Shown here: positions 9,007 through 30,709 of the stretch, piece by piece
Position numbering within the stretch: position 1 is the first letter of the stretch
Layout: each line of letters opens with the position of its first letter
Assembly: GCA_021790235.1 (NCBI GenBank)
Contig: JAJYID010000004.1
Coordinates: 1-50,279, forward strand
DNA length: 50,279 nt
Source: a bacterium
Lineage (GTDB): Bacteria; Patescibacteriota; CPR2; UBA1875; JAJYID01
Reading direction: 5' to 3'
Program-made: the position numbers and the translations under genes
The notes under the pieces: generated by a model
Seen by the model: only the letters and a program-made list of their open reading frames with translations
Databases searched by the model: none
What the model was told of the DNA's origin: nothing

Positions 9007-9031
9007 GTCATCCTGAACTTGATTCAGGATC
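9007..9031 (+). repeat. short hairpin repeat, GTCAT family (GTCATCCTGAA-CTTGA-TTCAGGATC)
   Basis: 8-bp perfect stem with CTTGA loop. Confidence 0.75.
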
Positions 9032-9047
9032 TAGGTTTGTTTGTATA

Positions 9048-9072
9048 GATTCCGGATCAAGTCCGGAATGAC
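9048..9072 (-). repeat. short hairpin repeat, GTCAT family (GTCATTCCGGA-CTTGA-TCCGGAATC on the minus strand)
   Basis: 8-bp perfect stem with CTTGA loop. Its terminal GGAATGAC contains the likely argS ATG (9068). Confidence 0.75.
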
Positions 9073-10732
9073 AGAGGAAAAAATGCATGAGGAACTGAAA
9101 AAAGCTATTTATGAAGCTGTAAAAGCCCAACAAAAAGATTGCGGGTGCGACTTCTCTATTCCCGGAGTTGAGCTTGAACATCCGAAAGATATGCGATACG
9201 GCGATATCTCGACCAATGTTGCTATGAAAATTGGAAAATTGCAAAGGAAGGATCCGATGGCAATTGCTGAGAATTTGGTAAAACAATTGGATCCTGGTTT
9301 AGTCAGAATGACACAGAGGAGAATTGAGAAAGTCGAAGCTGTGAAGCCGGGATTTATTAACTTTTATTTCAGCAGTGATTATTACCAGAAAAAAGTTCAA
9401 GAAATCATATCTGCCGGTAAGAAATTTGCCGATTCAAATATTGGTGAAGGAAAGAAAACCCAAGTTGAGTTTTTGTCGGCCAATCCCACTGGTCCGGCGC
9501 ATCTCGGAAACGCGCGTGGTGGTTTCTATGGCGATGTACTGGCGAATACTTTTCAAAAATTCGGGTTTAAAGTCGAGAGAGAATATTACGTTAATGATGG
9601 TGGTGGGCAAGTCATAAAGCTTGCCAAGTCGATTTTGGCTGAGGCAGAAATTATTCCCGGGGATGAAAGGGTTTACAGCGGAGTTTATATAAAAAAGTGG
9701 GTTGATGAGAATCGGGCATTTATCGAGGAGAACAAAGACGATCAGCAAAAGATCGGCTACAAAGCCGCTTGGGATGTCATGAATGATTACATTAAACCCT
9801 CAATCGAAAAGATGCATATCAAGTTCGACGAGTTCTTCAGTGAAAAGACCTTGCTTGAAAGCGGGGCGGTAGAAAAAACAATTGACGAACTGAAAAAGAA
9901 AAAACTGACGTATAAAAAAGATCAGGCTCTGTGGCTTAAGACGACCGAATTTGGCGATGATCAGGATAGGGTGCTGGTAAAAAGCGATGGAATGTATGCC
10001 TATATCGCGCCCGACATCGCCTATCATTACAACAAGTTTGGCGAAAGAAAGTTTGATCATGTGGTTGATGTTTTCGGCACAGACCATCACGGTTATGTGA
10101 AAAGGCTTTTGACGGCGACAGCTGCTCTCGGCTATCCGGGTCAGCTCGATATTCGTTTATTGCAGCTGGTTCGTTTAATTCAAAAAGGCAAAGAGCTTAG
10201 GATGTCAAAACGCGCCGGCACTGCGGTTACTTTTGACGAACTTCTTGACTTAATCGGTACAAAAGATGCCTCTGATGTAGCAAGATTTTTCTTTCTTTCC
10301 CGCGACCTCGACACCCATATGGACTTTGATCTCGATCTGGCCAAAGACACCTCCGAGAAGAACCCGGTTTATTATGTGAAATATGCATCGGCCAGGATAA
10401 ATGGGATCTTGCGTAATGCGACTATTGATTATTCTAAACCAAATTTAGGGTTGATTAAAAAACCGGCCGAAATCGACCTCATTAAAAAATTGATTGAACT
10501 GCCAGAAATAGTTGAGCAGGTGGCAAGCGACAAGAAATATCCGGTTCACAAGTTTGCTTATTACATTACGGAAGTGGCTGAGAAATTCCACAAATTCTAT
10601 CATGATTACCGGGTTGTTTCCGACGATGCGGAACTAACCAAGGCCAGACTAGCGCTTGTTGCAGCCACAAAAAATGTTCTAGAAATCACCGGGGAAGACA
10701 TTCTCGGTATTAACATACCAGAGAGGATGTAA
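9068..10732 (+). CDS. argS: arginyl-tRNA synthetase
   Basis: ANPTGPAHLGNARGG (HIGH region), RMSKRAG (KMSKS-like) and the anticodon-binding C-terminus ending in ...RM. The ORF-track start at 9041 (TTG) reads through the repeat, so ATG 9068 or 9083 is preferred. Confidence 0.9.
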   Translation: MTEEKMHEELKKAIYEAVKAQQKDCGCDFSIPGVELEHPKDMRYGDISTNVAMKIGKLQRKDPMAIAENLVKQLDPGLVRMTQRRIEKVEAVKPGFINFYFSSDYYQKKVQEIISAGKKFADSNIGEGKKTQVEFLSANPTGPAHLGNARGGFYGDVLANTFQKFGFKVEREYYVNDGGGQVIKLAKSILAEAEIIPGDERVYSGVYIKKWVDENRAFIEENKDDQQKIGYKAAWDVMNDYIKPSIEKMHIKFDEFFSEKTLLESGAVEKTIDELKKKKLTYKKDQALWLKTTEFGDDQDRVLVKSDGMYAYIAPDIAYHYNKFGERKFDHVVDVFGTDHHGYVKRLLTATAALGYPGQLDIRLLQLVRLIQKGKELRMSKRAGTAVTFDELLDLIGTKDASDVARFFFLSRDLDTHMDFDLDLAKDTSEKNPVYYVKYASARINGILRNATIDYSKPNLGLIKKPAEIDLIKKLIELPEIVEQVASDKKYPVHKFAYYITEVAEKFHKFYHDYRVVSDDAELTKARLALVAATKNVLEITGEDILGINIPERM

Positions 10733-14074: not shown

Positions 14075-17000
14075 ATGGAAGATTTACTTAAGGGTTTAAA
14101 TAGCCAGCAGACGGAAGCCGTTACTCATGATCAGGGGCCGCTTCTGATCGTTGCCGGGGCCGGGACAGGGAAGACGACTGTGATTACCCGGCGGATCGCA
14201 TATCTAATCGCGTCCAAAAAAGCTCTGCCATCTGAAATTCTGGCGCTGACATTTACCGACAAAGCGGCGGGTGAAATGGAAGAACGGGTTGACGAACTAG
14301 TACCGTATGGTTTTGTCGACACTTGGATCTCCACTTTTCACGCCTTTGGCGACCGTATCCTGCGCGATCATGCTCTTGATCTTGGCTTAACAACTGATTT
14401 TCGTGTGTTATCCAAGCCGGAACAGGTCATTTTTATGCAAGACAATCTGGAGGCGTTCGATTTAGAATACTTTTCGCCACTGGGTAGTCCACTAAAGCAC
14501 ATTGACGCGCTTCTCGGGCACTTCTCAAAGCTAAAAGATGAAACGATTTCATCGAAAGAATATCTGGAGTATGCATCTTCTCTGTCATCCCGAGCACCAG
14601 CCGAGGGATCCCTTGCAAAGAATAATCAATCTCCAATTTCCAATGACCAATCAAATTTTAATGATAAAATTTCAAAAAAGGGAAAAGGATTCTTCGATTT
14701 CGCTCAGAATGACAATGTGATAGAAGCGAAGAAAACTCTGGAAATTGCTCGGGCATATGAGCGGTATCAGGAACTGATGGCGGAGGCGGGTAATCTCGAC
14801 TTCGGCGATCAAATCAATAAAGTGATTGAGCTTTTTAAGGCGCAGCCGGCGATTCTCAAAAAGTATCAAAATCAATTTAAATATATCTTGGTCGATGAGT
14901 TTCAGGATACGAACTATGCCCAGAACGAACTATTGAAATTATTGGTGGGGGGAGAGAGGGATTCTTCGGCTCGTCCTCCCGGGAAGTCGCTCAGAATGAC
15001 AGAAGGGGGTGGCCACCAAAATATTACGGTTGTCGGTGACGATGACCAGTCGATTTACCGTTTTCGCGGTGCCGCCATTTCAAACATTTTGCAATTTCCG
15101 AAGGATTATCCAAAGTGCAAACAAATCGTTCTGACGGAAAACTACCGTTCGACTCAAGCCATTTTAGATAGCGCGTACAAACTCATTAAACATAACAACC
15201 CCGACAGATTGGAAGTAAAGAATAATATTGTAAAGAAGCTGAAATCCCGATTTGACGCCGCTACGCTCGAACCGATTCATCTGCACTCGGATACTTTGAC
15301 GGCTGAAACCGATCAGGTAGCCAAGATGATTAAAGATTATTACGACGAAGGTAAATATTCCTTCAAAGATTTCGCCATCCTTAGCCGTTCGCGCCGAAAC
15401 GCGGAGGATTTTATCCACGCCTTAAACCATTACGGTATCTCCTACAAATTTTCCGGCTCATCCGGCCTATATTCTCGGCCGGAAATCCGATTATTAATTA
15501 ATTTCGCCAAAGTTTTGATTTCATCCGGCGACAATCTGGCTTTTTATCACCTAATCACCTCTGACGTTTATGGCATGGAGGTGTCAGAGGCGGTGAAGTT
15601 GAATGAAATTAGCCATAAAACTAATCGAAGCCTGGAATATGCCGGCAAGCATGCCGAACTGTCCGAAAAAGCTAAGGGAATTTTGGATAGATTTCTAACA
15701 GATATCGGAAATTTCCGGGAAGAGTCCAAAAAGCTGACGGCCGGACAGGTGGTTTACCTATTTATAAAAGAAACCGGATATTTGCAGAAATTAATTACGA
15801 AAGCCGAGAAAAGCGCCGAGGCGCAAGTGGCTATCCAGAATATCGCCAAGTTTTTTGAGCGGATAGGCGACTTTGAGAAGATTTCGGAGGATAAAAGTCT
15901 CATTAATTTCGTTCACCACTTGAAGGCTCTCATGGATGCCGGTGATGATCCGGCAATGGCCGAAGTCGATCCGGACATCGAAGCAGTTAGTGTGCTCACA
16001 GTTCACTCGGCTAAGGGCTTGGAATTTCCCGTTGTTTTTCTGGTTTCTCTTGTTTCGGACAGCTTTCCAACCAGAAAGCGTGCCGATTCTCTGCCGATAC
16101 CCGAAGAACTCATTAAAGAGAGTTTGCCGGAGGGCGATTGGCACTTACAGGAAGAACGGCGGCTTTTTTATGTCGGAATGACCAGAGCCAAGGAAATTCT
16201 GTACCTAACGAGCGCCGAGGATTATAGAGGCAAAAGAGTGCGCAAGGTTTCTCAATTTGTTTTGGAAGCGATTGACAAACCGGCGCTGGTGAAAGATAAG
16301 GTGAAGCTCGACAAAGTCCAGGTGATTGAGCGGTTTAAGAAGCGAGAGGAAATCGCCATTCCTAAAAAATTCTATGACGGCAAGGGTTTACTTACTCTAA
16401 GTCCGCATCAGATAGATGACTATCTGTCATGTCCCAAAAAGTTTGAATACATCCATATCCTGCGTGTGCCGATCATGACGCATCACAGCGTGGTTTACGG
16501 CTCAGCTATCCATAAAGCGATTGAGGCATATTTTGTAACCAAAAAGGCCGATAAGAAAGTGAATTTAGATGATTTAATAGAAATTTTTAGTGCAAATTGG
16601 CAAAGTGAAGGATTCATAACTCGGGAACATGAGGACAAAAGATTTAAGCAGGGTAAAAAATCGCTGGCAGAATTTTTTGCCAGAGAAGAAGCGGCCAAGA
16701 AACTTCCCGAGGAAGTGGAGGCCAAGTTTGAGGTACCGCTGAAAGACATTGATGTCAAAATCCGCGGCCGTTTTGATGCCGTTTATGGGTTACCCTTTGT
16801 TATTCCGAGCGATCCGGCAACTGCCGGACGAGCCGAGGAATCCCTTTCCCAAATTGAAATCCGCGACTTCAAGACTTCGGAGGTAGAGACGCAAGACCAA
16901 GCTGACAAAAAAGCCAAGACAAACCGCCAGCTCTCAGTTTATGCGCTGGCGAAACAAACCGAGACCGGAGTAATTCCGGAAGTTTCGCTTTATTTTGTCG

Positions 17001-17176
17001 ATTCTGGGTTCGTCGGCAAGATCCAAAAGAAAGAAAAGGATCTGGATAAAGTTCGAGATGAAATTGAAAAAGTAGCCGAGGGGATTAAAGCCGAAAACTT
17101 CAAAGCTTCTCCTGGATTCGGCGAATGCTCCCGATGCGCCTATCGCGAAATCTGCCCTTTTACGCTGTCGAGATAG
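14075..17176 (+). CDS. UvrD/PcrA-type SF1 helicase fused to a C-terminal PD-(D/E)XK nuclease with Cas4/AddB-type Fe-S cysteines
   Basis: Helicase motifs: AGAGTGKT, DEFQDTN, VGDDDQSIYRFRGA, ENYRS, TVHSAKGLEFPVVFL, RRLFYVGMTRAKE. Nuclease motifs: CPKKFEY...GRFDAV...IRDFK...QLSVYA...CSRCAYREICP. Confidence 0.85.
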   Translation: MEDLLKGLNSQQTEAVTHDQGPLLIVAGAGTGKTTVITRRIAYLIASKKALPSEILALTFTDKAAGEMEERVDELVPYGFVDTWISTFHAFGDRILRDHALDLGLTTDFRVLSKPEQVIFMQDNLEAFDLEYFSPLGSPLKHIDALLGHFSKLKDETISSKEYLEYASSLSSRAPAEGSLAKNNQSPISNDQSNFNDKISKKGKGFFDFAQNDNVIEAKKTLEIARAYERYQELMAEAGNLDFGDQINKVIELFKAQPAILKKYQNQFKYILVDEFQDTNYAQNELLKLLVGGERDSSARPPGKSLRMTEGGGHQNITVVGDDDQSIYRFRGAAISNILQFPKDYPKCKQIVLTENYRSTQAILDSAYKLIKHNNPDRLEVKNNIVKKLKSRFDAATLEPIHLHSDTLTAETDQVAKMIKDYYDEGKYSFKDFAILSRSRRNAEDFIHALNHYGISYKFSGSSGLYSRPEIRLLINFAKVLISSGDNLAFYHLITSDVYGMEVSEAVKLNEISHKTNRSLEYAGKHAELSEKAKGILDRFLTDIGNFREESKKLTAGQVVYLFIKETGYLQKLITKAEKSAEAQVAIQNIAKFFERIGDFEKISEDKSLINFVHHLKALMDAGDDPAMAEVDPDIEAVSVLTVHSAKGLEFPVVFLVSLVSDSFPTRKRADSLPIPEELIKESLPEGDWHLQEERRLFYVGMTRAKEILYLTSAEDYRGKRVRKVSQFVLEAIDKPALVKDKVKLDKVQVIERFKKREEIAIPKKFYDGKGLLTLSPHQIDDYLSCPKKFEYIHILRVPIMTHHSVVYGSAIHKAIEAYFVTKKADKKVNLDDLIEIFSANWQSEGFITREHEDKRFKQGKKSLAEFFAREEAAKKLPEEVEAKFEVPLKDIDVKIRGRFDAVYGLPFVIPSDPATAGRAEESLSQIEIRDFKTSEVETQDQADKKAKTNRQLSVYALAKQTETGVIPEVSLYFVDSGFVGKIQKKEKDLDKVRDEIEKVAEGIKAENFKASPGFGECSRCAYREICPFTLSR
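14584..14612 (+). repeat. GTCAT-family hairpin repeat inside the helicase CDS (GTCATCCCGAGCACCAGCCGAGGGATCCC)
   Basis: Carries the family termini. In frame, encoding SSRAPAEGSL. Confidence 0.7.
14687..14713 (-). repeat. GTCAT-family repeat (inverted orientation) inside the helicase CDS
   Basis: GGATTCTTCGATTTCGCTCAGAATGAC is the reverse complement of GTCATTCTGAGCGAAATCGAAGAATCC. In frame, encoding GFFDFAQND. Confidence 0.7.
14957..15000 (-). repeat. GTCAT-family repeat (inverted orientation) inside the helicase CDS, between motifs II and III
   Basis: Reverse complement reads GTCATTCTGAGCGACTTCCCGGGAGGACGAGCCGAAGAATCCCT. In frame, encoding RDSSARPPGKSLRMT. Confidence 0.75.
16799..16844 (+). 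repeat. GTCAT-family repeat inside the nuclease domain
   Basis: GTTATTCCGAGCGATCCGGCAACTGCCGGACGAGCCGAGGAATCCC with inner stem TCCGGCA/TGCCGGA. In frame, encoding VIPSDPATAGRAEES. Confidence 0.75.
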
Positions 17177-20346: not shown

Positions 20347-21749
20347 GTGAAAAAAACTAAGATTATAGCCACTCTTGGGCCATCCTCGGATGACCCAAAA
20401 ATTATGGGAAAATTGATAGATGCGGGAGTCAATATCTTCCGTATCAATTTTTCGCATGCCACAGAAGAAGAAAGAGTTAAGAGGGTAAAAGATCTAAGAA
20501 CAATCGAGAAGACAAGCGGGAAACCGGTAACGATTTTACAGGATCTGCAAGGGCCAAAAATACGTGTCGGCAAGATCGACGGTTCTATTGAATTAACCGA
20601 AGGAAAAGAAATTACTCTCACTATAGATACACCGGCCCATGGCGAAGTTCCTGTCCAATATCAAGGTATAGTTAGCGACGTTGAGAGCGGAAACCGTATT
20701 CTTCTGGTTGATGGGAAAATCGTTCTTGAAGTTATTTCTAAAGACAAGAAAAGATTAAATGCAAAGTCAAAACTGGCGGTGTTTTAAGCTCAAATAAAGG
20801 GATTAACCTGCCGGACTCCAGCATTTCTCTGCCGGCCCTTTCCGAAAAAGATCTCCATGATTTAAAGTTTGGTCTGACTAATGATCTTGACTATGTGGCT
20901 CTTTCATTTGTCAAGTCAGCCGAGGATATTTTGCAACTTAAAAGCATAATCAAAAAAGCAGGGGGAAAGACCAAAGTGATCGCAAAAATCGAGCGTCACG
21001 AGGCAGTGAAAAACATTGATGAGATTATTGAGGCCGCAGATGCGGTTATGGTAGCAAGGGGCGATCTAGGGATCGAAGTTTCTCTGGCCAGTGTTCCGCT
21101 TCTTCAGAAAACGATTATTGAAAGATGTAATGCAGCCGGCAAGCCGGTGATAGTAGCAACCCAAATGTTAGATTCGATGGTGCGGAATCCTGTATCAACT
21201 AGGGCTGAGACATCCGATATCGCAAATGCTATTTTGGATGGGGCTGACGCAGTGATGCTTTCTGATGAAACATCTGTCGGCAAATATCCGATTAATGCAG
21301 TGAAAGTCATGTGCAAGATCGCTTTGACAGTTGAAAAATGGTCTAATGATAGCCAAATTATCATTGGGGAAGACGCAATTAAAAAAATTAATTCAACTTC
21401 AGAAGCAATAAGCAAAAGCGCCTGTAAACTGGCTTCGGAAATTAAAGCCAAAGTGATTATTAATGCAACGGCTCGGGGTAAGACAACTAAAAATGTTTCG
21501 AGATTTCGTCCGCATTGTCCGATAATTTCTGTGACCCACACTTTAAAAATCGCTCGGGAGCTAAATCTGGTTTGGGGAGTTTATCCGTATGTTCTGAAAT
21601 ACAAAACTGTTCGTGAGATGAGCAGACAATCTACGGAAATCGCTAGGGCCCTAAAACTCGTCAAGAAGGGAGACAAACTCGTGATAATCAGCGGTGAGAA
21701 AGTTGGCGTGGAAGGTGGCACTAACATGGTTAAAGTTAAGGAGCTTTAG
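20347..21749 (+). pseudogene. pyk: pyruvate kinase with its reading frame broken near 20740-20755
   Basis: The ORFs 20347..20787 (KIIATLGPSS, NFSHA) and 20895..21749 (MVARGDLGIE...) are the two parts of one pyk. In the -1 frame, 20748-20894 reads KKIKCKVKTGGVLSSNKGINLPDSSISLPALSEKDLHDLKFGL..., which bridges the two parts. Confidence 0.8.
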
Positions 21750-28283: not shown

Positions 28284-28331
28284 ATAGGCTAAAAACATAA
28301 AAATAGAAGAACTGAAAAACAAACTTGTCTT

Positions 28332-28374
28332 GTCATTCCGAGCGGCTTCGCGGAGCGACAAGTCGAGGAATCTC
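28332..28374 (+). repeat. GTCAT-family long repeat
   Basis: GTCATTCCGAGCGGCTTCGCGGAGCGACAAGTCGAGGAATCTC. Confidence 0.7.
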
Positions 28375-28393
28375 TTTCTAAAGTTTAAAATAA

Positions 28394-28438
28394 GGGATTT
28401 CTCCGTTAGCTACGAACGCATGAGTCAGTCGAAATGAC
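28394..28438 (-). repeat. GTCAT-family long repeat, inverted partner
   Basis: Reverse complement reads GTCATTTCGACTGACTCATGCGTTCGTAGCTAACGGAGAAATCCC. Confidence 0.65.
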
Positions 28439-28453
28439 AAAAAGAGAAGGGAT

Positions 28454-29053
28454 ATGGATAGATTAAAAATCAAAAGAATTATTAATGGAGCTGAGGAGGC
28501 AAATTGCTACTTACTTGTTTTGGGTAATGATCTAGCTGTTGTGGATCCCGGCGACAGGGTGGAAAGAATTATTTCCGCAATTGAGGAGTTTGGTACTTTA
28601 AATTATCGCTACATTTTCCTGACCCATGGGCATTTTGACCATGTAGGTGCGGTCAAGAAATTAGTTGAGAAGTATGGCTTCAGGGTTGCAATTAGCGATC
28701 GTGACAAAGACATTAAGTATCTTAACGAAAAATTCGGACTAAAGTTGCCTGGAATGCAATTTGATATTTTCGTGCATGACGGAGATATACTCAACTTTGG
28801 CGGAGGAAAGGTTAAAATTTTGGCAACTCCGGGGCACACCAGCGGCAGTGTCTGCTATCTGATAGGTGATAATCTTTTCTCCGGTGATACACTTTTTCCT
28901 CATCGGCACGGCCGGACAGATTTTGCGACCGGCAATCCGGAAGAGATGAGCGAGAGCTTGGCGAAGTTGTTTAAGCTGCCGGACGAAACAAAGGTATTCC
29001 CGGGACACTACGAGGAAACGACTATCGGCGAAGCCAGAAAATATTTCAAATGA
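28454..29053 (+). CDS. MBL-fold metallo-hydrolase (glyoxalase II-like)
   Basis: THGHFDHVGA (HxHxDH), then GHTSGS and the later His/Asp positions. Confidence 0.85.
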   Translation: MDRLKIKRIINGAEEANCYLLVLGNDLAVVDPGDRVERIISAIEEFGTLNYRYIFLTHGHFDHVGAVKKLVEKYGFRVAISDRDKDIKYLNEKFGLKLPGMQFDIFVHDGDILNFGGGKVKILATPGHTSGSVCYLIGDNLFSGDTLFPHRHGRTDFATGNPEEMSESLAKLFKLPDETKVFPGHYEETTIGEARKYFK

Positions 29054-30611: not shown

Positions 30612-30627
30612 CCTGCTACCTTGCATT

Positions 30628-30671
30628 GTCAACCCGACCGACGCTACGTTAGTGGTGAGTGGAGGAATCCC
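30628..30671 (+). repeat. GTCAT-family variant repeat
   Basis: GTCAACCCGACCGACGCTACGTTAGTGGTGAGTGGAGGAATCCC. The 3' terminus GGAGGAATCCC matches the family and the 5' end is diverged. Confidence 0.5.
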
Positions 30672-30709
30672 TTAGTTCGATAATTTAAAATAAAAAATAA
30701 TGAGGAAAA

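Follow-up and report, generated by a model that had tools for sequence, protein, structure and literature searches.

How did a functional helicase-nuclease gene come to contain four stretches of hairpin-like repeat DNA in its reading frame, and what are these repeats? The gene lies at positions 14075-17176 of a 50,279-nt stretch of contig JAJYID010000004.1 (GenBank assembly GCA_021790235.1, Patescibacteriota), which was analyzed over its full length and is here called the window. An earlier note, made from the DNA alone, had proposed that the four segments are selfish hairpin insertions like the Rickettsia palindromic elements (RPE). Our results make it very probable that the segments are one inverted doublet and two solo hairpin copies of a repeat from the CGTC-tagged superfamily of repetitive extragenic palindromes (REP), fixed in-frame in a functional gene; they would have spread at the DNA level via single-stranded DNA (ssDNA), with recognition by an Ssn-type nuclease. 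The gene and its segments are as follows.

14075-17176, plus strand: helicase-nuclease gene, an intact, stop-free open reading frame (ORF) of 1033 amino acids (aa)
14584-14612, plus strand: unit 1, short "A" type, GTCATCCCGAGC-ACCA-GCCGAGGGATCCC, left arm of the inverted doublet; peptide SSRAPAEGSL; hidden Markov model (HMM) E = 1.6e-5
14613-14686, plus strand: doublet spacer, 74 nt, AT-rich, with a CCAAT-rich second repeat (CCAATTTCCAATGACCAAT); peptide AKNNQSPISNDQSNFNDKISKKGK
14687-14713, minus strand: unit 2, GTCATTCTGAGCGAAATCGAAGAATCC on the minus strand, right arm of the doublet; peptide GFFDFAQND; HMM E = 5.2e-4
14957-15012, minus strand: unit 3, long type with leader (unit 14959-15000, pyrimidine-rich leader 15001-15012); peptide ERDSSARPPGKSLRMTEGGG; HMM E = 3.9e-10
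16790-16850, plus strand: unit 4, long type with leader and CTTTCC tail (unit 16799-16844); peptide LPFVIPSDPATAGRAEESLS; HMM E = 1.4e-7

Unit 1, whose sequence on the plus strand is GTCATCCCGAGCACCAGCCGAGGGATCCC, faces unit 2 across the spacer, and the three parts together form a composite of 130 nt. Unit 3 lies between helicase motifs II (DEFQDTN) and III (VGDDDQSIY), and unit 4, with the inner hairpin TCCGGC-AACT-GCCGGA, lies between GRFDAV and EIRDFK of the nuclease. The places of the four units, the facing pair with its composite of about 130 nt, the separation of these motifs, and the stop-free read-through into the peptides listed had all been described in the earlier note and were found again in the 1033-aa ORF; the one correction concerns the edge of unit 3, which we place at 14958-14959, 1 to 2 nt from the earlier coordinate of 14957. 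Peptides predicted to span the junctions of the inserts include APAEGSLAK, SLRMTEGGGHQNITVVGDDDQSIYR, and FDAVYGLPFVIPSDPATAGR. Literature searches for the repeat-encoded peptides turned up no papers.

Our analyses clearly demonstrate that the four segments are members of one repeat family. They share the termini GT(C/T)AT(C/T)(C/T)(C/T)GAGC... and ...GA(A/G)G(A/G)ATCC, and all four, as first delimited, have the form GT(C/T)-AT...AT-CC. In the window, 6 copies of the 5' terminal motif stand against an expectation of 1.3, and 5 copies of the 3' terminal motif against one of 0.39 (for each, 0 of 100 shuffles as high). Scanning for the repeat gave 36 matches, compared with 0.78 in shuffles. An nhmmer profile built from 10 units, all taken from other genomes and none from the window, matches all four segments, with E values between 3.9e-10 and 5.2e-4.

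The host protein is a UvrD/PcrA-type superfamily 1 helicase fused to a C-terminal PD-(D/E)XK nuclease of the Cas4/AddB-like kind. The Pfam families UvrD-helicase (1-271 of 271), UvrD_C (1-349 of 350), and PDDEXK_1 (1-247 of 247) match over their full length, a weaker match to Cas4 is also present, and the nearest solved structures are PcrA, UvrD, and AdnB/AddA. The ratio of nonsynonymous to synonymous substitution (dN/dS) relative to orthologues is 0.02-0.04, with dS saturated, and the gene is under strong purifying selection. The view that it has not decayed is therefore upheld. Among named relatives, a "candidate division WS5 bacterium" is the closest, with remoter homologues coming from Patescibacteria. 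The orthologues P0005, P0010, and P0029 carry an intein (Pfam PF14890), which in P0005 sits in motif III, between DDDQ and SIY, and P0005 also holds many more repeat-derived inserts than the window gene; the helicase-nuclease gene is a magnet for selfish elements. In an Rfam scan with gathering and E-value thresholds, the four segments match no family, and tRNAs were the only matches besides a sub-threshold one to n00280, a C. difficile small RNA located within a helicase gene, at 16121-16220 (38.8 bits versus a gathering score of 65.2). This match most likely reflects conserved helicase coding sequence.

The segments are insertions and not ancestral sequence. We refer to the doublet of units 1 and 2 as site 1, to unit 3 as site 2, and to unit 4 as site 4. 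Alignment of orthologues had been named in the earlier note as a check, and it revealed empty sites: in an alignment of 22 proteins, the segments are absent from most orthologues at 70-78% identity and from all at about 50%, and in this and a codon alignment the sites are empty in P0009, P0011-15, and the locus L002. Over both alignments, the segments are missing from orthologues at 70-95% identity. In the nearest relatives, peptides derived from repeats, some related and some different, occupy the three sites of the window as well as a fourth one where the window has no insert, and a codon alignment of eight syntenic orthologues shows that relatives carry the same DNA units. Two pairs display the filled and the empty state directly. 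L004 differs from L002 by a 105-nt doublet at site 1 (proteins 92% identical over ungapped columns), and L005 differs from L002 by a net 54 nt at site 4 (95% identical over ungapped columns). The doublets have inverted termini, one of the two marks of miniature inverted-repeat transposable elements; the other, a target-site duplication, is not visible at these two pairs, whose flanks are too diverged for a firm reading. Unit 1 has a counterpart at the same site in L003, L004, and L007 (29/31 nt identity) and none in L001, L002, and L005; unit 3 has a homologous counterpart at the same site in P0005; and the subtype of unit 4 recurs at the same codon in L005, the site being empty in L002 and L004. 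In PcrA (1PJR), some 50 residues are missing at site 1 and 18 at site 2. Remnants of decayed units are recognizable in an argS copy and at site 2 of L001 and L004.

The inserts are predicted to form disordered surface loops. In an AlphaFold2 model, they appear as coil with a predicted local distance difference test (pLDDT) score below 50 at residues 179-210, 295-314, and 908-924, that is, at all insert sites, and they are flanked by confident helices and strands (residues 908-924, for example, fall between strands E894-906 and E926-933). The loop placement put forward in the earlier note is in accord with this model. In-frame insertion at structurally tolerant sites of a functional ORF, by which Rickettsia palindromic elements are recognized, is thus what is found here.

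A scan with a repeat model, also proposed in the earlier note, detected further copies, both intergenic and in other genomes. Together with the orthologues that lack the segments, the intergenic copies in the window bear out the comparison with Rickettsia palindromic elements. The other copies in the window are listed below.

9007-9072 (9007-9032 plus strand, 9047-9072 minus strand): intergenic inverted doublet of short units, smpB/argS, at a conserved position
9289-9312, minus strand: decayed in-frame unit in argS; peptide DPGLVRMT; weak HMM match (E = 0.8)
28332-28438 (28332-28373 plus strand, 28395-28438 minus strand): intergenic inverted doublet of long units with a 21-nt spacer; HMM E = 2.7e-13 and 1.2e-8
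30628-30670, plus strand: solo long unit, partly degenerate, directly past the rmuC stop codon; HMM E = 1.6e-12

The nhmmer extents of the intergenic copies are 28326-28380, 28391-28441, and 30622-30674, and the doublet at 28332-28438 ends 15 nt ahead of an ATG at 28454. Both units of the smpB/argS doublet are kept in place in L001 and one in L004. Within argS itself, codon ~69 is occupied in-frame in five of six genomes, including the decayed copy of the window; L003 has no unit there. The intact units are of the C type in L001 (4116-4140) and of the GTCATTCTGG type in L002 (2311-2335), L004 (4844-4868), and L005 (2828-2852), so that this codon is a second recurrently occupied site. The window contains three doublets among 9 clear units, and the helicase gene, which makes up 6% of the window, holds 4 of the 9 (P = 0.0014). 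These four are also its intragenic share, which becomes 5/10 when the decayed argS copy is counted.

Several observations concern the surroundings of the units. An AT-rich second repeat of CCAAT/TTTCCAAT motifs, encoding peptides such as FPISNFQSNINDQ, adjoins CGTC units within genes (window 14620-14680, in the doublet spacer of the helicase; L006 7166-7215 and 14520-14580; L007 1620-1670) and could be a small element in its own right. Yet another short palindrome, CCTGCCTCGCCGGCAGGCAGG, sits within the loops of intragenic CGTC units (L006 7939-7983 and 15361-15423; L007 2750-2794). The 12-nt leaders upstream of units are pyrimidine-rich and G-poor, as at 15001-15012 (minus), 16787-16798 (plus), and 28439-28450 (minus) of the window, and in the set of 43 units defined below, 19 leaders contain CCTC, CTCC, TCCT, or CCTT, compared with 3.9 expected. 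The complement of the leader is Shine-Dalgarno-like, and minus-oriented units end 10-15 nt ahead of start codons (the argS ATG at 9083, the ATG at 28454, and the helicase ATG in L003). Elsewhere in the window, pyruvate kinase is represented by two ORFs (20347-20787 and 20895-21749), whereas relatives have a single 468-aa gene. Insertion of a repeat was considered as the cause and ruled out, the break containing no repeat unit; the split near 20780 is apparently a frameshift or an assembly error.

To identify the repeat, we compared 43 distinct units, drawn from the window together with seven orthologous loci. The palindrome is preceded by GTC in 41 units and by GTT in the other 2, and the base before this triplet is T in 34/43 and C in 7/43; three of the four in-gene units have the tag TGTC, and unit 4 has TGTT. 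Since the scan for units imposed five outer stem pairs and the form AT...AT-C, the second base of the tail is the sole independent evidence on the tail in these 43 units, and it is C in 32. The three inner stem pairs were free in the scan; they show 4-16 compensatory double changes or, in the long subtypes, a G·A/A·G step. The superfamily of CGTC-tagged REPs, described in 2013 by Di Nocera, De Gregorio, and Rocco, is defined by a (C/T)GTC tag that stays unpaired, A-T/T-A as the first pairs of the stem, and a short C-rich tail; dimers predominate in it, and it includes the dRS3 repeat of Neisseria (CGTC-1) and RPE-6 (CGTC-1) and RPE-4 (CGTC-4) of Rickettsia conorii (PMC3733652). Intragenic copies were reported from UvrD/Rep, RecBCD, and tRNA-synthetase genes, with enrichment in UvrD/RecBCD, in other phyla (PMC3733652). 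Motifs with the same signature, named NTS and Ssn-related motifs (SRM), are bound by SsnA, a GIY-YIG ssDNA nuclease; cleavage depends on the three bases that precede the palindrome, and binding on the C that follows it (Chenal et al. 2025, PMC11893778). The latter study does not cite the former. On these sequence features, we assign the repeat to the CGTC-tagged REP superfamily, also described as NTS/SRM. The family is thus not the "analogous, poorly characterised" one supposed in the earlier note; it is grouped with RPE-4, RPE-6, dRS3, and NTS/SRM.

With a relaxed pattern, the repeat family was found, among the matches listed, in metagenome-assembled genomes of many phyla. The exact 29-mer of the short "A" unit is present in at least 120 soil metagenome contigs (L140-L259) with a G+C content of about 55%, and among the matches listed an inverted partner accompanies 80 of 126, mostly 28-31 nt away. 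A 29-nt unit from a genome of 40% G+C is thus abundant in contigs of much higher G+C content, which, as far as the sequences tell, suggests that the unit is extremely conserved or has spread horizontally.

In the window and the seven orthologous loci, about 31 of 54 units (~57%) are intragenic and in-frame, in the helicase gene, argS, and a radical-SAM gene; when the helicase is left out, 11 of 34 are. Coding calls made from ORFs in GC-rich loci were judged unreliable and left out of account. Of the 54 units, 20 lie in the helicase, which accounts for 13.8% of the DNA (P = 1.7e-5); without the window the count is 16 of 46 (P = 0.002), and the enrichment is 2- to 3-fold. Presence and absence of units are patchy on the tree of orthologues, and a given site can hold different partner units in different lineages. 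At site 1, units show 29/31 identity between genomes that agree at 42-51% of their third codon positions. Unit DNA is far better conserved than synonymous sites, which are saturated, and the copies are therefore young, homogenized, or constrained as DNA.

Tolerance of translation in both orientations had been proposed as a property of the family. Read-through does occur in both, and the intragenic copies are not biased in orientation (14 plus versus 17 minus). The tolerance is largely a matter of composition and survivorship: the G+C content of the units is 55% and that of the window 40%; the units are just moderately poor in stops, with some 60% of frames open compared with 39-50% in controls; and the one minus-orientation frame that contains TGA is used in none of the 17 minus intragenic copies. 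Avoidance of this frame, which excision would not require, argues that the units are translated.

How the units spread is suggested by two loci from the candidate phyla radiation (CPR). In L098 (Magasanikiibacteriota) and L130, a single-domain GIY-YIG gene of 95-96 aa is located between inverted units, with a plus-oriented unit just upstream of the ATG and a minus-oriented unit 1-5 nt past the stop codon; the flanking units of L098 are of the same type as unit 2 of the window. The CPR protein matches Pfam GIY-YIG with 59 bits, its homologues number more than 6500, and CPR bacteria account for most of the named top hits. An ssn gene is likewise typically found between inverted units (PMC11893778). 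A GIY-YIG protein found on 25 contigs (P0174) was considered as a multicopy element and rejected, as it is one locus recovered in many samples. We propose that the units spread as DNA-level elements by way of a hairpin in single-stranded form, that this hairpin would be recognized, and the units perhaps mobilized, by a GIY-YIG nuclease of the Ssn type whose gene lies elsewhere in the genome, and that doublets would be derivatives of a unit-ssn-unit element without the gene. Insertion would be blind to the reading frame, and in a gene-dense genome many copies would land in genes. Selection would then retain insertions of a multiple of 3 nt that are free of stops in the frame used and lie in tolerant loops; copies so fixed would be translated as filler loops and later decay by mutation.

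Several results weigh against this proposal. Nearest-neighbor folding of the single units and of the composite was no better than that of shuffles, and "palindromic" therefore means a perfect outer stem of 5 bp with an imperfect inner part. No unit of the window matches the published SRM string HGTCWYN(0-2)YYVSBRHN(0-5)WNVSBRGN(0-2)RNCYNB, which is matched by 3 of the 43 units (short C-type units in L001, L003, and L007), and none matches the published NTS string. At the L004/L002 and L005/L002 pairs, no target-site duplication is visible, but the flanks there are too diverged for a firm reading. The AlphaFold2 model is mediocre overall (mean pLDDT 70.5, predicted template modeling score 0.43) and has other regions of low confidence. 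A six-frame motif search detected no GIY-YIG gene in the 50-kb window or in L001-L009, nine loci from this genome and seven orthologue contigs, and the link to Ssn is therefore indirect for this genome; the same search of 120 metagenome loci was also negative. We know of no strand-transfer activity of Ssn nucleases, and for SsnA only ssDNA cleavage is reported (PMC11893778). Finally, the high conservation of the units is equally compatible with a selected function and with recent spread.

The last point leaves room for a selected function of the in-gene copies, as these units are highly conserved and enriched in the gene. The units would then be kept by a function as DNA or RNA and would not be neutral selfish filler; they might be Ssn marks that limit replacement of the repair gene by incoming ssDNA, or mRNA hairpins that tune expression. 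The 29/31 identity at saturated synonymous sites and the enrichment in the helicase, which recurs in the UvrD/RecBCD genes of other phyla (PMC3733652), are in line with this, as is the finding that SsnA together with NTS lowers transformation in Neisseria (PMC11893778). We nevertheless regard it as unlikely, given that close orthologues lack the units, decayed copies exist, the subtype and the partner of a unit vary between lineages at the same site, and neither orientation is preferred; the conservation is accounted for just as well by repeated recent insertion, with a conserved master copy as the source. A related and bolder idea, which we hold to be rather unlikely, is that the units are renewed or maintained as targets of Ssn nucleases and that the unit-ssn-unit arrangement represents a class of GIY-YIG-driven hairpin transposons that re-target the same loops of helicases and tRNA synthetases. 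If this is true, such transposons reshape proteins, and perhaps recombination, in bacteria with small genomes.

Inverted doublets resembling REPINs (paired REP units) raise the possibility that the units are of the REP/REPIN type and are mobilized by a REP-associated tyrosine transposase (RAYT) or an IS200-family tyrosine (Y1) transposase, and the one Y1 gene encountered, in L007 (6754-7173), does lie about 270 nt downstream of a CGTC-type unit. The tag, however, is (T/C)GTC and not GTAG, the L007 protein is an IS200 equivalog (110 bits) that reaches 28 bits with the RAYT model against a cutoff of 80, and the 2013 survey found no Y1 gene flanked by CGTC units (PMC3733652), whereas GIY-YIG genes are so flanked. 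The L007 transposase is probably unrelated to the repeats, and this explanation is very improbable. We give almost no credence to the notion that the segments are ordinary lineage-specific loop sequence, ancestral or of convergent low complexity: sites 1, 2, and 4 do vary in length across the wider family, but the same DNA units occur between genes and in other genes, with identity at the nucleotide level and in both orientations, and close orthologues have empty sites. Removal of the segments before the mature protein is formed, as mini-introns or in the manner of inteins, is brought to mind by the real inteins in some orthologues; since the segments, coding for 9-15 aa, have no Rfam match, and since all insertions keep the frame and avoid the one that contains a stop, it is scarcely conceivable. 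The in-frame fixation of selfish CGTC-tagged hairpins thus remains the explanation that we favor.

Both the phenomenon and the superfamily have been described before, as has the preference for UvrD/RecB-type genes. The present locus extends the in-frame decoration of proteins with hairpin repeats, best known from Rickettsia, to a WS5/CPR-like lineage, and one sequence signature joins three literatures, those on RPE and CGTC-tagged REPs, on dRS3/NTS of Neisseria, and on Ssn nucleases. The natural pairs of filled and empty sites and the recurrently occupied loops provide material for testing the mobility of Ssn-type elements. There are also practical consequences, as such inserts inflate or split domain matches in proteins predicted from metagenomes (Pfam UvrD-helicase is matched twice in L006 and in L007) and can mislead alignment-based phylogeny and structure prediction.

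Rickettsia palindromic elements of the RPE-1 type, reportedly described by Ogata et al. in 2000 (as cited in PMC10969869), are about 150 bp long and encode a conserved peptide of 45-50 aa. They resemble the elements described here in being selfish palindromic DNA fixed in-frame in protein genes where the fold can accommodate it, and in being found in a reduced genome; they differ in that the present units measure 27-46 nt and translation runs through them in several frames and in either orientation. With the REP/REPIN-RAYT systems, the units share short hairpin repeats, inverted doublets, and presumed recognition of an ssDNA hairpin, but those systems have a GTAG tag, whereas here the tag is GTC and the units are associated with a GIY-YIG nuclease instead of a RAYT. 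NTS/SRM have in common with our units the GTC upstream and the C downstream of the palindrome, and an architecture like unit-ssn-unit, with a putative Ssn-type GIY-YIG gene, is seen in L098 and L130. Only 2% of NTS lie within genes in Neisseria meningitidis (PMC11893778), in contrast to 4 of the 9 clear units of the window.

The CGTC-tagged REPs agree with the present units in the (C/T)GTC tag, the A-T/T-A opening of the stem, and the C-rich tail, in occurring mostly as inverted dimers with spacers of 20-100 nt, and in having in-frame intragenic copies, often dimers, that are enriched in UvrD/Rep, RecBCD, and tRNA-synthetase genes. The families CGTC-1 to CGTC-4 have a stem of 8-9 bp and a loop of 4-5 nt, which fits the short C- and D-type units of this lineage and the doublet at 9007-9072 but not the in-gene units, in which a perfect outer stem of just 5 bp leads into a tandem G·A step (CGAG/CGAG) with a variable hairpin inside it, for a length of 28-46 nt. 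New relative to that superfamily are the host, a WS5/CPR-related lineage outside the 2013 survey, the longer subtypes containing G·A, the 29/31 identity of units between genomes with saturated synonymous sites, the recurrent and patchy hits at the same loops, and the much higher intragenic share, ~57% in the loci examined.

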